A stretch of DNA of 64,000 nt from Escherichia coli. GTDB lineage: Bacteria; Pseudomonadota; Gammaproteobacteria; Enterobacterales; Enterobacteriaceae. The notes under the pieces were generated by a model, which had not been told where the DNA came from, ran no database searches, and worked only from the letters and a program-made list of their open reading frames with translations. This document shows, in pieces, positions 3,824 to 9,386 of this stretch (the first letter of the stretch is position 1; each line of letters starts with the position of its first letter). The stretch is taken from the NCBI RefSeq assembly GCF_003334305.1, contig NZ_QOWS01000001.1; one strand, given 5' to 3'. The position numbers were made by a program, and so were the translations under genes.

Positions 3824-4025
3824 TTAATTCGTAAAACGTGCTACCGATCACATTAAGAAATCAGCGCTTATTTTTTCGCTCCCCGGCATTACGCAATGCG
3901 CAACGAACTCAGGCATACATCAAGCATAGAGAGGGATTACAGTTTGCAGCAATCCCTCTTTGCAGACCTTTAATCCGTTGACCATAGGCGCTAACATGGC
4001 GCCTCATTTTTTTGCGGGTGAAGAT

Positions 4026-4976
4026 ATGCGTGTGTTACTGGCTCCGATGGAGGGTGTGCTTGACTCTCTGGTGCGTGAATTGCTGACCGAAGTTAACGAC
4101 TACGATCTGTGCATCACCGAGTTTGTCCGCGTGGTGGATCAACTGCTGCCGGTAAAAGTCTTTCATCGCATTTGCCCTGAGCTACAAAACGCCAGCCGGA
4201 CACCATCTGGTACGCTGGTGCGCGTGCAGTTGTTAGGTCAGTTCCCACAATGGCTGGCAGAGAACGCCGCCCGTGCGGTGGAGTTAGGTTCCTGGGGCGT
4301 GGATCTCAATTGCGGCTGCCCGTCGAAAACGGTTAACGGTAGCGGCGGCGGCGCGACGTTACTCAAAGATCCTGAACTCATCTACCAGGGTGCAAAAGCG
4401 ATGCGTGAAGCTGTACCAGCGCATTTGCCCGTCAGCGTAAAAGTGCGTCTGGGCTGGGACAGCGGTGAGAAGAAATTTGAAATCGCCGATGCGGTTCAAC
4501 AGGCTGGCGCTACGGAGCTGGTGGTGCATGGACGGACAAAAGAGCAGGGTTACCGCGCGGAGCATATTGACTGGCAGGCGATTGGCGAGATTCGCCAGCG
4601 GCTGAATATTCCGGTGATTGCCAACGGCGAAATCTGGGACTGGCAGAGCGCGCAACAATGCATTGCGATCAGCGGCTGCGACGCAGTGATGATTGGTCGC
4701 GGGGCGCTCAATATTCCCAACCTGAGCCGGGTAGTAAAATATAACGAACCGCGAATGCCGTGGCCGGAGGTGGTTGCTTTGCTGCAAAAATATACCCGTC
4801 TGGAAAAGCAGGGCGATACCGGGTTATATCACGTTGCGCGGATTAAACAGTGGTTGAGTTATTTGCGTAAAAAATACGATGAAGCAACGGAATTATTTCA
4901 GCATGTTCGGGTGTTGAATAATTCCCCTGATATTGCAAGGGCTATTCAGGCAATTGATATCGATAAGCTGCGATAA
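4026..4976 (+). CDS. dusC: tRNA-dihydrouridine synthase C
   Basis: TIM-barrel Dus family; start taken at [10 protein letters not shown]; recognised. Confidence 0.9.
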
Positions 4977-5084
4977 TAGTGGAATCGCAGTTTATCAGAG
5001 ACAATGAATCGCTTATTCAGCTTCATCATCTTGTTGCGCTCCTTTCATGAGCTAAGCCACATATTGCCACTGGCGCAAGGAGCG

Positions 5085-5290
5085 CGCAGGGGGAGGACAA
5101 TCGCCTCCTCCCCCTGCACCCCCGGGCTCTGGCGAACAAAATCGCCGCTGCGCGGTACCTTCAGCTTATCCCCTTCGTCTACCGGGTCGGGCGCGAGGTA
5201 ACGTCCTTGTAAGACGCGCCCTCAGCCCACATCCATGTGGGCTGCCCCGGCCTTCGGGGAACGCTTCAGCGATTTTGACGCCACCAACAC
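5085..5290. other. GC-rich intergenic element with several strong hairpins, identity unknown
   Basis: Inverted repeats gggggagg...cctccccc (5088..5116), gcccacatccatgtgggc (5224..5241), ccccggccttcgggg (5245..5259); no plausible ORF. Confidence 0.4.
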
Positions 5291-5363
5291 CGGAGCTGTT
5301 TGCAAATCAAGTACACAAAATATCTAGTTCCTGACCTGACAACTTATATGCCATATCTGATTT

Positions 5364-5447
5364 TTAAAATATCATCTTAAATACGCCAGTCACCACCAGT
5401 AGCCCAATCAGGAAAATAATCAATACAGCCCAGAGTATAATTTTCAT
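5364..5447 (-). CDS. yohP: Small membrane protein YohP (27 aa)
   Basis: Hand-translated MKIILWAVLIIFLIGLLVVTGVFKMIF with TAA stop; not in the ORF track (below length cut-off). Confidence 0.8.
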   Translation of the reverse strand: MKIILWAVLIIFLIGLLVVTGVFKMIF

Positions 5448-5670
5448 TGGCGTTCCTTTATTTGTGAGTGCTGAATAAGTATAGGAAAAAACGAAGCCCT
5501 TTGCCGTTATCCATAAACGATTAAGATAAATCGGAAGATATCATTTACTTAGTCTATATTTTTCTGGATATGTCGTTTTATTGCTACTGATGTATTGCCA
5601 CGCGAAACTAAAAAATATATCGCAACACACGGTAATCTCCGCGCACCTTTTCTTACCTGATTATTCCCCC

Positions 5671-7107
5671 ATGAATCGTGATTCCTTTTATCCAGCCATC
5701 GCCTGTTTTCCGCTGTTACTGATGCTGGCCGGGTGTGCACCTATGCATGAAACCCGCCAGGCGTTAAGCCAGCAAACGCCTGCTGCACAAGTTGACACCG
5801 CATTACCCACGGCGCTGAAAAATGGTTGGCCAGACAGCCAATGGTGGCTGGAGTATCACGATAATCAACTCACTTCCTTAATTAACAATGCACTACAGAA
5901 CGCACCGGATATGCAGGTGGCTGAACAGCGCATTCAGCTAGCTGAAGCCCAGGCGAAGGCAATTGCTACTCAGGATGGTCCGCAGATCGACTTTTCTGCG
6001 GATATGGAGCGGCAAAAAATGTCGGCAGAAGGCTTAATGGGGCCGTTTGCTCTGAACGATCCGGCCGCAGGTACGACCGGTCCGTGGTACACCAACGGAA
6101 CTTTTGGCTTAACGGCGGGCTGGCATCTCGATATCTGGGGAAAGAATCGGGCGGAGGTTACTGCCCGCCTGGGTACGGTTAAAGCACGGGCGGCGGAACG
6201 CGAGCAAACCCGCCAATTGCTGGCTGGCAGCGTAGCCCGCCTGTACTGGGAGTGGCAAACCCAGGCGGCGTTAAACACGGTCTTGCAGCAAATAGAAAAA
6301 GAGCAGAACACCATTATCGCGACCGATCGCCAGCTATATCAGAACGGGATTACTTCTTCAGTTGAAGGTGTGGAAACCGATATTAATGCCAGCAAAACCC
6401 GGCAGCAGCTCAACGATGTCGCGGGGAAAATGAAAATTATTGAGGCACGGTTAAGCGCACTTACAAATAACCAGACAAAGTCATTGAAGCTTAAACCGGT
6501 CGCGTTGCCGAAAGTGGCAAGCCAGCTTCCTGATGAACTGGGGTACTCCTTACTGGCCCGGCGGGCAGATTTGCAGGCGGCGCACTGGTACGTTGAGTCA
6601 TCGCTAAGCACCATTGATGCGGCAAAAGCGGCATTTTATCCTGACATCAACCTGATGGCCTTCCTGCAACAGGATGCGTTGCACTTAAGCGATCTGTTCC
6701 GTCATTCCGCGCAGCAAATGGGCGTTACGGCAGGCCTGACGCTACCCATTTTCGATAGTGGTCGTCTTAACGCCAATCTCGATATCGCAAAAGCCGAAAG
6801 CAACTTGTCTATCGCCAGCTACAACAAAGCGGTGGTTGAAGCGGTGAATGACGTGGCGCGGGCAGCCAGTCAGGTTCAGACACTTGCGGAGAAAAACCAG
6901 CATCAGGCGCAAATTGAGCGCGATGCCTTGCGTGTGGTAGGTCTTGCGCAGGCGCGCTTTAACGCGGGCATCATTGCTGGTTCCCGCGTCAGCGAAGCCA
7001 GAATCCCCGCGCTGCGTGAGCGGGCCAATGGCCTGTTATTGCAAGGGCAGTGGCTGGATGCTTCCATTCAACTCACTGGTGCGTTGGGCGGGGGTTACAA
7101 ACGCTGA
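5671..7107 (+). CDS. mdtQ: Outer-membrane efflux lipoprotein, TolC/OprM (NodT) family, apparently intact
   Basis: Lipoprotein signal peptide ending LLMLAGC (lipobox), 478 aa uninterrupted; recognised as yohG/mdtQ. Confidence 0.85.
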   Translation: MNRDSFYPAIACFPLLLMLAGCAPMHETRQALSQQTPAAQVDTALPTALKNGWPDSQWWLEYHDNQLTSLINNALQNAPDMQVAEQRIQLAEAQAKAIATQDGPQIDFSADMERQKMSAEGLMGPFALNDPAAGTTGPWYTNGTFGLTAGWHLDIWGKNRAEVTARLGTVKARAAEREQTRQLLAGSVARLYWEWQTQAALNTVLQQIEKEQNTIIATDRQLYQNGITSSVEGVETDINASKTRQQLNDVAGKMKIIEARLSALTNNQTKSLKLKPVALPKVASQLPDELGYSLLARRADLQAAHWYVESSLSTIDAAKAAFYPDINLMAFLQQDALHLSDLFRHSAQQMGVTAGLTLPIFDSGRLNANLDIAKAESNLSIASYNKAVVEAVNDVARAASQVQTLAEKNQHQAQIERDALRVVGLAQARFNAGIIAGSRVSEARIPALRERANGLLLQGQWLDASIQLTGALGGGYKR

Positions 7108-8050: not shown

Positions 8051-8629
8051 TTACGCCTGATGATCCGGCTTTTTCTTCCCGCGCCGTTTCAGCCACCAGC
8101 GCACGCCCACCACCAGAACCACGACCAGAATCAACCAGACCCAGTGCTTCAAATGCTGGTCGAGATTGTGCAACCACGGCGCAATCACCTGACCACCAGC
8201 GTAACCAATAGTGGTAAAAATCAACGCCCAGGCAAATGCGCCGAGAATATTCAGCGGCAGAAAGATTTTCGGCGGCAGCTGGCTGGCACCAATCAGCGTC
8301 GGGCCAATCACCCGAAAGCCATACATAAAGCGCGTACCAATGACAAACAGATACGGATGGCGTTGGATAAGTTTCTGCGCCCGCTCAATTTTATCCTGAT
8401 GTTTCGAGAAACGGCGTAACAGCTTGCCGCCAAACCGCCGCCCGCACAGATAAAGCACCTGGTCGCCAATCATGCCGCCAAGCGCCACAGAAAGTACCAC
8501 CAGCGGGAACTTTAATAGCCCCTGATGTGCCGCAACGCCTCCCAGCAAAGTCACGGTTTCACCTTCCGCCAGGCTACCGATCACCAGCGCGGCATAACCA
8601 TATTGTGAGATGAGTGTATTGAGATCCAT
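8051..8629 (-). CDS. yohD: DedA-family inner-membrane protein YohD
   Basis: 192-aa membrane ORF from MDLNTLISQYGYAAL; recognised. Confidence 0.85.
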   Translation of the reverse strand: MDLNTLISQYGYAALVIGSLAEGETVTLLGGVAAHQGLLKFPLVVLSVALGGMIGDQVLYLCGRRFGGKLLRRFSKHQDKIERAQKLIQRHPYLFVIGTRFMYGFRVIGPTLIGASQLPPKIFLPLNILGAFAWALIFTTIGYAGGQVIAPWLHNLDQHLKHWVWLILVVVLVVGVRWWLKRRGKKKPDHQA

Positions 8630-8798
8630 AGGCCAGTCTGTCTCCCTTTGGTTGCCTGTAAGCATACACCCTGGAAATCATTCACGCTGAAAAAGGACAT
8701 ACATCAGACGGTGCAAATTACATGGATGAACAAAAAATAATCACAAGCTGACTTATACTTGAACTGTCAGGTTCATGAACTCACAACAAGGGGGCGGT

Positions 8799-9386
8799 AT
8801 GAGCCATGTCTGGGGACTGTTTTCCCATCCCGATCGTGAAATGCAGGTGATTAATCGCGAAAACGAAACGATTTCTCACCATTACACCCACCACGTTTTG
8901 CTGATGGCGGCGATTCCGGTGATTTGCGCCTTCATTGGCACTACACAGATTGGCTGGAATTTTGGCGATGGCACTATCCTGAAGTTATCCTGGTTTACCG
9001 GACTGGCGCTGGCTGTCCTGTTTTATGGCGTTATGCTGGCTGGGGTTGCGGTAATGGGGCGGGTCATCTGGTGGATGGCGCGTAATTATCCGCAGCGTCC
9101 GTCACTTGCGCACTGCATGGTCTTCGCGGGCTACGTTGCAACTCCGCTGTTTTTAAGCGGTCTGGTGGCGCTTTATCCGCTGGTCTGGTTGTGTGCGCTG
9201 GTCGGCACGGTGGCGCTGTTTTACACCGGCTACCTGCTTTACCTTGGTATTCCGAGCTTCCTGAATATCAACAAAGAGGAAGGCCTTAGCTTCTCTAGTT
9301 CGACGCTGGCGATTGGCGTGCTGGTACTGGAAGTGCTGCTCGCCCTAACCGTTATACTATGGGGCTACGGTTATCGTTTGTTCTAG
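8799..9386 (+). CDS. yohC: Yip1-family inner-membrane protein YohC
   Basis: 195-aa polytopic membrane ORF starting MSHVWGLFSHPD. Confidence 0.8.
   Translation: MSHVWGLFSHPDREMQVINRENETISHHYTHHVLLMAAIPVICAFIGTTQIGWNFGDGTILKLSWFTGLALAVLFYGVMLAGVAVMGRVIWWMARNYPQRPSLAHCMVFAGYVATPLFLSGLVALYPLVWLCALVGTVALFYTGYLLYLGIPSFLNINKEEGLSFSSSTLAIGVLVLEVLLALTVILWGYGYRLF

Follow-up and report, generated by a model that had tools for sequence, protein, structure and literature searches.

A GC-rich block between dusC and yohP of Escherichia coli is the known repeat TRIP1c (RRS-dusC), present here in inverted orientation

The stretch of DNA analyzed here (the window) comprises 64,000 nucleotides of an Escherichia coli contig (NZ_QOWS01000001.1), and local synteny places it at ~2.23 Mb of the K-12 chromosome. 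The gene order at the locus is dusC (3960–4976), a structured element (~5012–5330), yohP (5364–5447), and mdtQ, which starts at 5581. A preliminary description had reported a GC-rich block of ~200 bp (5085–5290) in an otherwise AT-rich dusC–yohP spacer. The contrast in composition was borne out where it had been placed, with 62–65% GC (0.65 for 5085–5290 and 0.617 for 5016–5292) compared with 35–38% around it (0.385 for 4977–5015 and 0.352 for 5293–5363) and 0.505 for the 64-kb window overall. The span had been drawn too small, as copies of the element at other loci align over ~5012–5330. The features of the locus are listed here, with the element named as identified below.

3960–4976, plus strand: dusC, tRNA-dihydrouridine(16) synthase, the left flank, with a C terminus unlike that of K-12.
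4964–5361, unstranded: segment unlike K-12, holding the inverted element and the last dusC codons; to either side (4000–4963 and 5362–6500), the window is colinear with K-12 and 99% identical.
5012–5330, unstranded: full conserved repeat unit, TRIP1c plus a ~40-bp right-hand extension found in copies at other loci, from alignments of 20–24 copies (Escherichia, Kluyvera, Pseudocitrobacter).
5016–5292, unstranded: TRIP1c core, from blastn, alignment, and literature identity.
5067–5289, unstranded: probable and approximate equivalent of the published 222-bp RRS-dusC, with coordinates carried over by alignment to K-12.
5364–5447, minus strand: yohP, 27-aa membrane protein, the right flank.

We identified the block as TRIP1c from its locus (dusC–yohP–mdtQ), its sequence identity, the presence of other copies at the TRIP1a and TRIP1b sites, and a G-tract match. 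The TRIP1 intergenic repeats, TRIP1c among them, go back to Rudd 1999, as cited in PMC10888264 (Li et al. 2024), where TRIP1 is described as 146–273 bp long, with 62–65% G+C, a very stable "double-Y" fold, and 84–94% identity between types. The window element was ~91% identical to K-12 TRIP1a (aqpZ–lysO) over ~300 bp (304 bp; blastn) and 88–89% identical to K-12 TRIP1c (dusC–yohP) over ~272–279 bp, in inverted orientation only, and these values fall within the published inter-type range. It sits downstream of yohI (dusC) and before yohG (mdtQ), where TRIP1c is located, and it shares the composition and fold of the family (GC of 0.617–0.65, MFE of −147 kcal/mol, two multi-branch domains, and an eight-helix consensus). 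The remaining E. coli copies lie at aqpZ–lysO and putP–efeU, matching the published TRIP1a and TRIP1b. RRS-dusC and RRS-lysO are equated with TRIP1 in the RRS papers (Pham 2023, 2024; Kusi-Appauh 2026; PMC10287960, PMC11194060, PMC13308219), and RRS-dusC is defined in MG1655 as 222 bp lying 58–281 bp downstream of dusC (PMC11194060); the window element matches this 222-bp repeat of dusC and lysO in both locus and sequence.

The dusC–yohP block is TRIP1c of the TRIP1 family, which is RRS-dusC, and it is an element already known. It had been presented as unexplained; instead, it belongs to a known repeat family (TRIP1/RRS), the outcome named beforehand as telling against that claim, and it has published in vivo and in vitro function. 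The discovery value is small, the element having been named in 1999 and functionally characterized since 2023. The practical point is an annotation gap: the element is unannotated at the K-12 RefSeq locus and under the matches in the E. coli records listed, and unaided readers will go on rediscovering it.

The element does not look like coding sequence. The ORFs that overlap it are all short (65, 37, 30, and 27 aa), and copies differ by 1- to 2-nt indels and compensatory stem changes in a pattern that is not codon-like, which agrees with the earlier statement that the block has no credible ORF. Neither a tRNA nor a tmRNA was found in the element, and a relic of either was rejected. Another reading, in which a 5′ leader hides its ribosome-binding site ahead of a small ORF, was also rejected. 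The minus strand does have AAGGAG and, after it, ATGATG at 5029, and anti-SD pairing is possible, but the downstream ORF changes between copies (27 aa in the window, 9 and 3 aa in those of K-12); the supposed SD arm is simply helix 8 of the fold described next, since it covaries to GUGAACGG in other subfamilies.

Three strong inverted repeats had been noted in the block. Two of them are perfect, GCAGGGGGAGGA/TCCTCCCCCTGC (5086–5097/5106–5117; 12 nt, 100% complementary) and CAGCCCACAT/ATGTGGGCTG (5223–5232/5235–5244; 10 nt, 100% complementary). The third, the ccccggccttcgggg hairpin (~5246–5260), is present in the sequence but is allele-specific, with CCCCGGCCTTCAGGG, CCTCCAGGG, or CCTACAGGA in other copies, and it falls outside the conserved fold. 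Two further long-range pairs, which the preliminary description did not include, join 5036–5044 to 5077–5085 and 5137–5152 to 5262–5277. When 5010–5300 was folded as RNA, the minus strand reached −147.2 kcal/mol compared with a shuffle mean of −114.5 ± 5.1 (z = −6.42; none of 200 shuffles reached its energy), and in DNA folding the z scores were −6.57 (minus strand) and −6.13 (plus strand). The consensus fold has eight helices, with compensatory (both-side) changes in 27 of 51 pairs, a count reached by none of 500 shuffles, and 97.7% of its cells in the alignment are paired, compared with 85.1% in shuffles and 41–44% when partners were slid. G-U cells outnumbered A-C cells (58 versus 7; 20 versus 7 without the two dominated columns), which favors the G-rich strand as the folding strand. 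Selection on the fold is strong and acts on the G-rich strand, whose eight-helix structure is conserved along with two invariant GGA-containing loops. The individual parts, including the G-tract motif, are as follows.

5036–5085 (arms 5078–5085 and 5036–5043), minus strand: helix 8, the terminal stem, GCGCUCCU/AGGAGCGC, with compensatory changes in 4 of 8 pairs, e.g., CGTTCAC/GTGAACG in other subfamilies.
5088–5114 (arms 5106–5114 and 5088–5097), minus strand: helix 7, the G-rich hairpin, the gggggagg..cctccccc repeat noted earlier, with compensatory changes in 6 of 9 pairs.
5104–5123, minus strand: G-tract motif GGGGGTGCAGGGGGAGGAGG, sharing 18 of 20 bases with the published RRS G-quadruplex motif GGGGGTGCAGGGGGCGGCGG (PMC11194060).
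5137–5277, minus strand: long-range helices 1–3 closing the first "Y" (5270–5277/5137–5144, 5263–5269/5159–5165, and 5256–5258/5170–5172), from the inverted repeat and covariation.
5152–5155/5145–5148, minus strand: helix 6, small, lying in the span of the first "Y" (5137–5277).
5190–5220, minus strand: helix 5 (GGCGCG/CGCGCC), enclosing the second GGA apical region UUACAAGGACGUUA (5199–5212), in which GGA is invariant.
5224–5243, minus strand: helix 4, hairpin AGCCCACA-UGGA-UGUGGGCU, the gcccacatccatgtgggc repeat noted earlier, with the loop AUGGAU invariant in 24 of 24 sequences and four covarying stem pairs.
5246–5260, unstranded: local hairpin ccccggccttcgggg, outside the conserved fold.

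In Kluyvera genomosp. 3 and one further Enterobacteriaceae genome, the apex of helix 5 forms a perfect hairpin whose loop reads AUGGAU. The GGA-presenting loops are better conserved than the G-tracts.

The idea of a repeat element pointed in the right direction: the element is dispersed, with a median of three places per E. coli genome and a range of 1–8. The dusC copy is present in 5,411 of 5,426 complete E. coli genomes, and relatives occur in Kluyvera, Pseudocitrobacter, Klebsiella, Edaphovirga, and Shewanella. Where flanking genes were identified, in Kluyvera, Pseudocitrobacter, and one further Enterobacteriaceae genome, the copies sit away from dusC and lysO; a tblastn search with 15 proteins that flank the K-12 copies gave no match near the Kluyvera and Pseudocitrobacter copies, and dusC/lysO synteny of these copies was rejected. 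One Klebsiella chromosome has at least 13 copies and the sampled Edaphovirga loci have more than 25, and tail-to-tail pairs and arrays of the element occur. In the alx–sstT spacer, for which another species carries TRIP1d, K-12 has a different G-rich repeat, and the spacer was therefore uninformative as an empty site for target duplication.

The exact K-12 G-quadruplex motif is absent from the window; its G-tract pattern is kept, with two C-to-A changes, and may still form a quadruplex. Both alignment and blastn showed the element to be inverted relative to the K-12 dusC copy. Plus-strand GC skew was positive in 14 of 15 overlapping 8-kb windows of the 64 kb, with −0.003 in the remaining one. 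From this positive skew together with synteny, we infer that the minus (G-rich) strand is the leading-strand template and its C-rich complement the lagging-strand template; the same reasoning applied to K-12 reproduces the published lagging-strand-template assignment. The window copy thus departs from the published RRS orientation. This arrangement is common: the dusC copy is inverted in 2,002 of 5,426 complete E. coli genomes (37%) and the lysO copy in 17%, and an orientation polymorphism of TRIP1c has been published (2,952 forward and 2,789 reverse; Li et al. 2024, PMC10888264). The RRS papers call position and orientation highly conserved (Pham 2023, 2024; Kusi-Appauh 2026), in contrast to these proportions and to the relatives found elsewhere in other genera. 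O157:H7, which is inverted at both dusC and lysO, and the strains identical to the window over the element are of the inverted type and so belong to a large E. coli minority, which carries the orientation for which engineered K-12 showed no RecA peak.

Functional evidence comes throughout from K-12 MG1655 and its cloned elements. RecA and SSB ssDNA peaks are found at both RRS elements in K-12 and are lost on deletion (PMC10287960, PMC11194060, PMC13308219). Pol I, II, and IV are all stopped by RRS, and cells deleted for both elements are viable only with an amplification (PMC11194060). In single-molecule work, gaps accompanied almost every encounter with the G4 strand as lagging-strand template and ~66% of encounters in the reversed orientation, and gaps in the reversed orientation in vitro were about half-sized (RRS papers). 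In vivo, the inverted element gave no RecA–ssDNA peak and still supplied the essential function (PMC11194060). The RRS elements flank the Ter macrodomain at a distance of ~650 kb from dif (RRS papers).

In the published mechanism, shown for K-12 and in vitro, unwinding by the replisome exposes the lagging-strand-template strand, which folds into a very stable structure of G-quadruplex and hairpins. The fold blocks the lagging-strand polymerase, a new Okazaki fragment starts downstream, and the outcome is a transient ssDNA gap bound by SSB and RecA, of at most ~2 kb in vivo and ~0.3–0.65 kb in vitro. In the RRS authors' proposal, such gaps are topological relief valves to either side of the Ter macrodomain. 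We consider it quite likely that, taken together, the block is TRIP1c/RRS-dusC with this published replication-gap mechanism, inverted here. Given the published orientation experiments and the inverted G-rich strand, we infer that the window copy would trigger fewer and smaller gaps than the K-12 orientation.

Several observations sit uneasily with a gap mechanism at this site. The G-rich strand lies on what is probably the leading-strand template, in the orientation without an in vivo RecA–ssDNA peak. Two C-to-A changes set its G-tract motif apart from the published one. Invariant GGA loops with covarying stems exceed the needs of a "fold fast and block polymerase" model. A canonical quadruplex needs four G runs; the Edaphovirga relatives keep the GGGTGCAGGGG hairpin, yet in the 190 nt that follow the core they have one to three runs of at least 3 G. 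The Kluyvera, Pseudocitrobacter, and Klebsiella copies are at other loci, with at least 13 per chromosome, so a strictly positional Ter-flanking role fits poorly. Strong selection on the fold, the better conservation of loops than of G-tracts, the distant relatives, and the inverted minority each bear on the "topological relief valve" model.

It is also conceivable, if unlikely, that the G-rich strand is transcribed as a structured RNA related to TwoAYGGAY, whose GGA loops would be targets of CsrA or of some other loop-specific protein and which would act as a sponge or 3′UTR element, in addition to or instead of a DNA role. The best Rfam match in the block was TwoAYGGAY (RF01731), on the minus strand at 5139–5278 and over the full model span, with 27.7 bits (E = 0.067). 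This is under the 43-bit gathering score, and no family reached its gathering score in the block. The window element therefore falls outside TwoAYGGAY as thresholded, and so do the K-12 lysO copy and the type-1 copies (Kluyvera, Pseudocitrobacter, the further Enterobacteriaceae genome, and the asmA–yegH subfamily), all of them below the threshold. A score above it (49.2 bits) was obtained for the "type-2" partner elements of Kluyvera and Pseudocitrobacter. True TwoAYGGAY RNAs of Lachnospiraceae (76 and 72 bits) carry an identical CA-GCCCACAUGGAUGUGGGC-UGAG hairpin, and a covariance model (R1) of the TRIP1 first "Y", which scores 173 bits on that region of the window (5137–5277), finds Lachnospiraceae hairpins at 26–32 bits. 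As for the AYGGAY loops themselves, the first loop is invariant as AUGGAU, the second reads AAGGAC here and AGGGAU in K-12, and there is an outer stem, with covariation.

The loop sequences ACAUGGAUGU, ACAGGGAUGU, and ACAAGGACGU are similar to RUACARGGAUGU, the consensus from CsrA SELEX, and TwoAYGGAY has been predicted to be a CsrA-binding sRNA (PMC4333381). Invariant GGA loops, covarying stems, and a G-U over A-C bias that marks the same G-rich strand fit an RNA; however, a folded DNA strand also predicts covariation and G-T wobble. In both dusC alleles, the G-rich strand is downstream of and codirectional with a gene, dusC in K-12 and yohP in the window, where it follows directly. Orientation relative to neighbors is nevertheless inconsistent, and in K-12 the lysO copy runs antisense to the genes on either side. 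A scan of 4850–5650 found no minus-strand promoter, no terminator on either strand, and one promoter-like site on the plus strand; with fewer signals than in shuffles, a sigma-70 promoter and intrinsic terminator for a G-rich-strand transcript were rejected. In CsrA CLIP-seq and three other CsrA target sets, dusC and ybjE are marked "No," with no expression change in the csrA mutant, in tables that are gene-based and may miss intergenic peaks.

We tentatively raise the possibility that TRIP1/RRS is the Escherichia branch of a much wider gammaproteobacterial family of structured elements (Klebsiella, Kluyvera, Pseudocitrobacter, Edaphovirga, and Shewanella), whose first domain would also be that of TwoAYGGAY RNA in clostridia. 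The GGA loops, not the G-quadruplex, would be its most conserved part, implying a sequence-specific factor (CsrA on RNA, or an ssDNA protein). If this is true, the "quadruplex on lagging-strand template" model would be incomplete, and natural inversion (37% at dusC and 17% at lysO) points the same way.

We give very little credence to a selfish, nonautonomous MITE-like element that spreads or flips among intergenic spacers, with its structure serving transposition and no host function at dusC. Its dispersal, presence/absence, and copy-number variation (1–8 places in E. coli, at least 13 in a Klebsiella chromosome, more than 25 across sampled Edaphovirga loci) would fit such an element, as would unrelated loci in different genera, both orientations at the same two E. 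coli loci, tail-to-tail pairs and arrays, and the alx–sstT spacer, with another repeat in K-12 and TRIP1d in another species. However, no terminal inverted repeats join the unit ends, no clean empty site was found that would show a target-site duplication, and no transposase is associated. There were no phage matches, and 34 of 72,556 plasmid records matched, all 34 predicted to be nonmobilizable; at least 8 of the 15 listed plasmid records are 0.7–5.4 Mb, consistent with mislabeled chromosomes or fragments. The miniature inverted-repeat option raised earlier is thus unsupported, and phage or plasmid cargo was rejected, the plasmid matches being, it seems, largely mislabeled chromosomal DNA. 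The 5,411 of 5,426 complete E. coli genomes that keep the dusC copy argue for retention rather than turnover, and deletion phenotypes have been published. An IS200/IS605-type end, an omega-RNA, and a type I toxin remnant were rejected, with no gene associated at any copy and no Rfam support; RSA and Box C repeats, for which the literature gave no sequence for comparison, were dropped once TRIP1 was identified. The block was correctly said not to be a canonical REP: apart from the subthreshold TwoAYGGAY match, neither REP-derived naRNA4 nor any other Rfam family was found in it, and 4700–5700 held no naRNA4 match at E ≤ 10, with naRNA4 matches seen elsewhere, in related loci.

TRIP1c/RRS-dusC can be set beside several known systems. 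Like REP/BIME and ERIC, it is intergenic, palindromic, and GC-rich, but its fold is much longer and more elaborate and it occupies 1–8 places per genome rather than hundreds of copies. The RRS authors name the pilE-associated G-quadruplex of Neisseria gonorrhoeae as the one further bacterial sequence described so far in which a folded template strand programs a gap; it differs in its unrelated sequence, in being a short quadruplex only, and in serving antigenic variation rather than chromosome topology. The CsrA-sequestering RNAs CsrB, CsrC, and RsmZ likewise present A(N)GGA hairpin loops near RUACARGGAUGU, but the element has two such hairpins rather than many and is not known to have a promoter, and its neighbor genes have no reported CsrA CLIP signal. 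TwoAYGGAY (RF01731; Weinberg et al. 2010) is alike in the outer stem around two adjacent GGA-loop hairpins on the G-tract strand, and the first hairpin matches its Lachnospiraceae counterpart exactly. By contrast, the second Escherichia loop is AAGGAC or AGGGAU rather than AYGGAY, the second TRIP1 domain (G-rich hairpin and terminal stem) is missing from the Rfam model, and TRIP1 is not known to be transcribed.

The closest systems are the published elements themselves. RRS-dusC and RRS-lysO share the element and locus, the G-tract motif on the G-rich strand, and extreme folding potential; the window copy differs in being inverted, with its G-rich strand presumably the leading-strand template, and in two substitutions in the motif (GGAGGAGG for GGCGGCGG). 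With TRIP1c (Li et al. 2024), it agrees in locus, family (88–92% identity), length class, GC, and "double-Y" fold, and nothing essential differs: the unit extends ~40 bp beyond the published 273 bp, and its orientation is opposite to that of K-12.

The block lies in the spacer between dusC and yohP, in a stretch of the window that runs yohK and yohJ (minus strand), dusC (plus), yohP (minus), and mdtQ and yohF (plus). Its description as a GC-rich segment in an otherwise AT-rich spacer held up, with 65% GC across 5085-5290 and 35-38% in the outer parts of the spacer. Three strong inverted repeats had been named; two are perfect, and the third (ccccggccttcgggg) was found in the window but is restricted to this allele and not conserved among copies. 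Separately, mdtQ (5581-7107), an annotated pseudogene in K-12, is an intact 508-aa ORF in the window.

Features of the dusC-yohP spacer
3960-4976, plus strand: dusC
5364-5447, minus strand: yohP
5086-5097/5106-5117: inverted repeat, 12 nt, perfect
5223-5232/5235-5244: inverted repeat, 10 nt, perfect

The element folds far more stably than shuffled controls do, with z scores of -6.42 as RNA and, as DNA, -6.57 for the minus strand and -6.13 for the plus strand. A search for tRNA and tmRNA genes in the element was negative, and the Rfam scan, a covariance-model search proposed in the preliminary description, returned 0 families at threshold. Around the element, we found no terminator on either strand and a single promoter-like site (plus strand), with fewer sites than in shuffles. 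The ORFs overlapping the block are all short and unconserved, in agreement with the earlier statement that none is credible.

A nucleotide search for further copies, also proposed at that stage, revealed a dispersed repeat. When window 5060-5310 was used as a megablast query, the element was matched in all 5,426 complete Escherichia coli genomes, at a median of 3 and a maximum of 8 places per genome; no annotated feature lay under the element among the matches listed. K-12 has further copies at aqpZ-lysO (ybjE) and putP-efeU (partial), and comparison of copies from different loci placed the conserved unit at about 5012-5330. These are the TRIP1 repeats described by Li et al. 2024 (PMC10888264), which cites Rudd 1999 as their first report: elements of 146-273 bp and 62-65% GC with a "double-Y" fold, located at aqpZ-ybjE (TRIP1a), putP-ycdN (TRIP1b, with a 125-bp internal deletion), yohI (dusC)-yohG (mdtQ) (TRIP1c), alx-sstT (TRIP1d), and copA-ybaP (TRIP1e) (PMC10888264). 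The window element is TRIP1c. Papers on replication risk sequences (RRSs) state that TRIP1a is RRS-lysO and TRIP1c is RRS-dusC (PMC10287960, PMC11194060, PMC13308219). The preliminary description had called the block unexplained and had held that membership of a known repeat family would count against that view; because the element is TRIP1c/RRS-dusC, it belongs to such a family, and the term no longer applies. We conclude that the element is already known and that its DNA-level function already has experimental support. One metagenome-assembled contig (JAFAEO010000008.1; L011, 314-2790) has a TRIP1 copy between the dusC 3' end and copA, which is either a TRIP1c/TRIP1e recombination product, of which Li et al. 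give one earlier case (PMC10888264), or a chimeric assembly.

According to the RRS papers, lagging-strand ssDNA peaks of RecA and SSB begin at each 222-bp RRS element, reach about 1.4-2.5 kb from it, and are lost upon its deletion. In MG1655, the lagging-strand template at both RRS loci is the G-rich strand, which carries the motif GGGGGTGCAGGGGGCGGCGG and is a block to Pol I, II and IV; double-deletion cells are viable only if they have a 200-kb amplification, ectopic copies or inverted copies, and inverted copies show no RecA-ssDNA peak (PMC11194060). In single-molecule experiments with the G-rich strand as the lagging-strand template, almost every encounter produced a gap; in the reverse orientation, about 66% of encounters did, and the gaps were about half the size (RRS papers).

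Orientation is where the window differs from K-12. Both flanks (window 4000-4963 and 5362-6500) are colinear with K-12 and about 99% identical to it, and the element (5016-5292) aligns with its K-12 counterpart at dusC only when inverted (88% identity). With 88% identity inside the element and 99% in the flanks, the dusC alleles are therefore old or have been exchanged with other copies. The replaced segment (4964-5361) extends into the final dusC codons. The encoded C terminus is ...IDIDKLR in the window and ...IDIEKL as read from K-12 DNA, and an inverted repeat across the dusC stop codon (GATAAGCTGCGAT/ATCGCAGTTTATC; 13 nt, 92% complementary, window 4962-4996) is present in the window-type allele only. 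For TRIP1a and TRIP1c, both orientations were already on record (PMC10888264). We counted them using junction-specific queries in the 5,426 complete E. coli genomes, 5,411 of which retain the dusC copy.

Orientation alleles in 5,426 complete E. coli genomes, and segments bearing the variants
dusC locus: K-12-type junction 3,409; inverted (window-type) junction 2,002
aqpZ-lysO locus: K-12-type junction 4,121; inverted junction 907
Window 4964-5361: orientation variant
L001 (K-12 dusC-yohP) 4069-4448: orientation variant
L029 (comparison locus) 3856-4176: orientation variant

O157:H7 has the inverted orientation at both dusC and lysO, and several strains have one copy only, at dusC, oriented as in the window. 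Plus-strand GC skew was above zero in 14 of 15 overlapping 8-kb segments covering the 64 kb; the plus strand would therefore be the leading-strand sequence, that is, the lagging-strand template, and the G-rich minus strand, with the G-tract motif GGGGGTGCAGGGGGAGGAGG at 5104-5123, would thus be the leading-strand template. This assignment is supported because the same GC-skew reasoning reproduces the published one for K-12. We infer that the window copy, if it is an RRS at all, acts through its C-rich strand.

The family has clearly moved in the course of evolution: copies in Kluyvera and Pseudocitrobacter occupy recD-argA, a site near xthA, mdlB-glnK, and pntB-uspE, and one in another Enterobacteriaceae genome occupies nirB-tsgA. 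We found no terminal inverted repeats joining the unit ends, no clean empty site, no transposase next to the copies at the K-12 loci or at those in the other genomes just named, and 0 matches to the element in a phage search. Among 72,556 plasmid records, 34 matched the element, and all 34 are predicted to be non-mobilizable; at least 8 of the 15 matches listed are records of 0.7-5.4 Mb, sizes that fit mislabelled chromosomes or fragments of them. The 243-kb "plasmid" pEC16-AU-EG1 (NZ_CP194962.1; L004) carries the chromosomal putA-putP-TRIP1b-efeUOB segment; either a large piece of the chromosome was captured or the assembly is at fault. A 5.37-Mb Klebsiella pneumoniae chromosome filed as a plasmid (CP125156.1; H284) has matches at 13 places with about 84% identity, a copy number that far exceeds the picture of a pair flanking Ter. 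The K-12 alx-sstT spacer (L086, 3549-3761) holds a different G-rich repeat with the motifs GGGAGAGGG and GGGTGAGGG, which looks like Box C; in E. whittamii this spacer, apparently a hotspot for intergenic repeats, has TRIP1d.

We aligned 24 copies, oriented as the G-rich strand: Escherichia copies at the dusC, lysO, and alx loci; an asmA-yegH subfamily of non-coli Escherichia; Kluyvera and Pseudocitrobacter copies and one from another Enterobacteriaceae genome; and four diverged "type-2" partner elements. The RNAalifold consensus had 51 pairs in 8 helices, with two-sided changes in 27 of the 51 and compensatory pairs in every helix. Paired cells made up 97.7%, versus 85.1 ± 0.6% after shuffling (0 of 500 shuffles reached 97.7%) and 41-44% when partners were slid, and the covariation score was 0.355 versus 0.127 shuffled. 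G-U cells outnumbered A-C cells (58 versus 7; 20 versus 7 without two dominated columns), so the strand selected for folding is the G-rich one, which is also the functional strand according to the RRS papers. This bias fits a folded DNA template and an RNA equally well. AAGGAG at 5036-5045 was considered as a Shine-Dalgarno sequence and rejected; it is an arm of helix 8 and reads GUGAACGG in other subfamilies.

The best Rfam match was TwoAYGGAY (RF01731; minus strand, 5139-5278, full model), at 27.7 bits versus a gathering score of 43. A search for the hairpin GCCCACATCCATGTGGGC in 100,044 species genomes recovered TRIP1 copies from Escherichia species, Kluyvera, and Pseudocitrobacter. Lachnospiraceae genomes yielded true TwoAYGGAY RNAs whose hairpin and flanks are identical (76 and 72 bits), and Edaphovirga, Shewanella, and a Thiotrichaceae genome yielded other repeats, each of which has a second GGA-presenting hairpin. 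A covariance model that we built for the first domain of TRIP1 (152 positions) scored the window copy at 173 bits and matched the Lachnospiraceae RNAs at the hairpin pair with 26-32 bits.

Comparison loci with TRIP1 relatives
L012 2165-2453: paired TRIP1-like/type-2 arrangement
L079 5617-5905: same arrangement
L070 4051-4338: same arrangement
L038 9193-9475: same arrangement
L016 8724-9044: asmA-yegH subfamily
L073 296-616: asmA-yegH subfamily
L082 817-1138: asmA-yegH subfamily
L062 about 8470-8830: asmA-yegH subfamily
L039-L049, e.g. L045 136-580 and 7458-8505: Edaphovirga cremea

In Kluyvera and Pseudocitrobacter, each TRIP1-like copy lies tail-to-tail with a diverged type-2 element that shares its architecture; together they make up a composite of about 600 bp, and the type-2 hairpin pair exceeds the TwoAYGGAY gathering score (49.2 bits). 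The diverged asmA-yegH subfamily occupies a locus absent from the TRIP1 paper (PMC10888264), and its E. whittamii copy (L062) has an insertion of roughly 75 bp within the element. Edaphovirga has more than 25 full-length matches to our model (27-47 bits, both strands), spaced about 300 bp apart in runs at some loci; every unit that we examined retains a GGGTGCAGGGG...CCCCTGC-type hairpin, and within the 190 nt following the core there are only 1-3 runs of at least three G. Full-length matches in Shewanella (23-31 bits; L006, L009, L054, L077) have the same hairpin GCCCACAUGGAUGUGGGC and a second one, GGGGCAGGAUGCCCC; both copies examined (L009 and L054) have G-rich DNA downstream, which forms a hairpin in L009. 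The Rfam scan of the Edaphovirga and Shewanella loci gave no match at any threshold.

In 24 of 24 aligned sequences, the AUGGAU loop and the second GGA were unchanged, and their stems covary. What is conserved at the family level is the hairpin and loops, not four G-tracts. dusC and ybjE are marked "No" in K-12 CsrA CLIP-seq and three other target lists, which argues only weakly against a CsrA role because the tables are gene-based. CsrA binding has been predicted for TwoAYGGAY (PMC4333381), and the TRIP1 GGA loops resemble the CsrA consensus RUACARGGAUGU.
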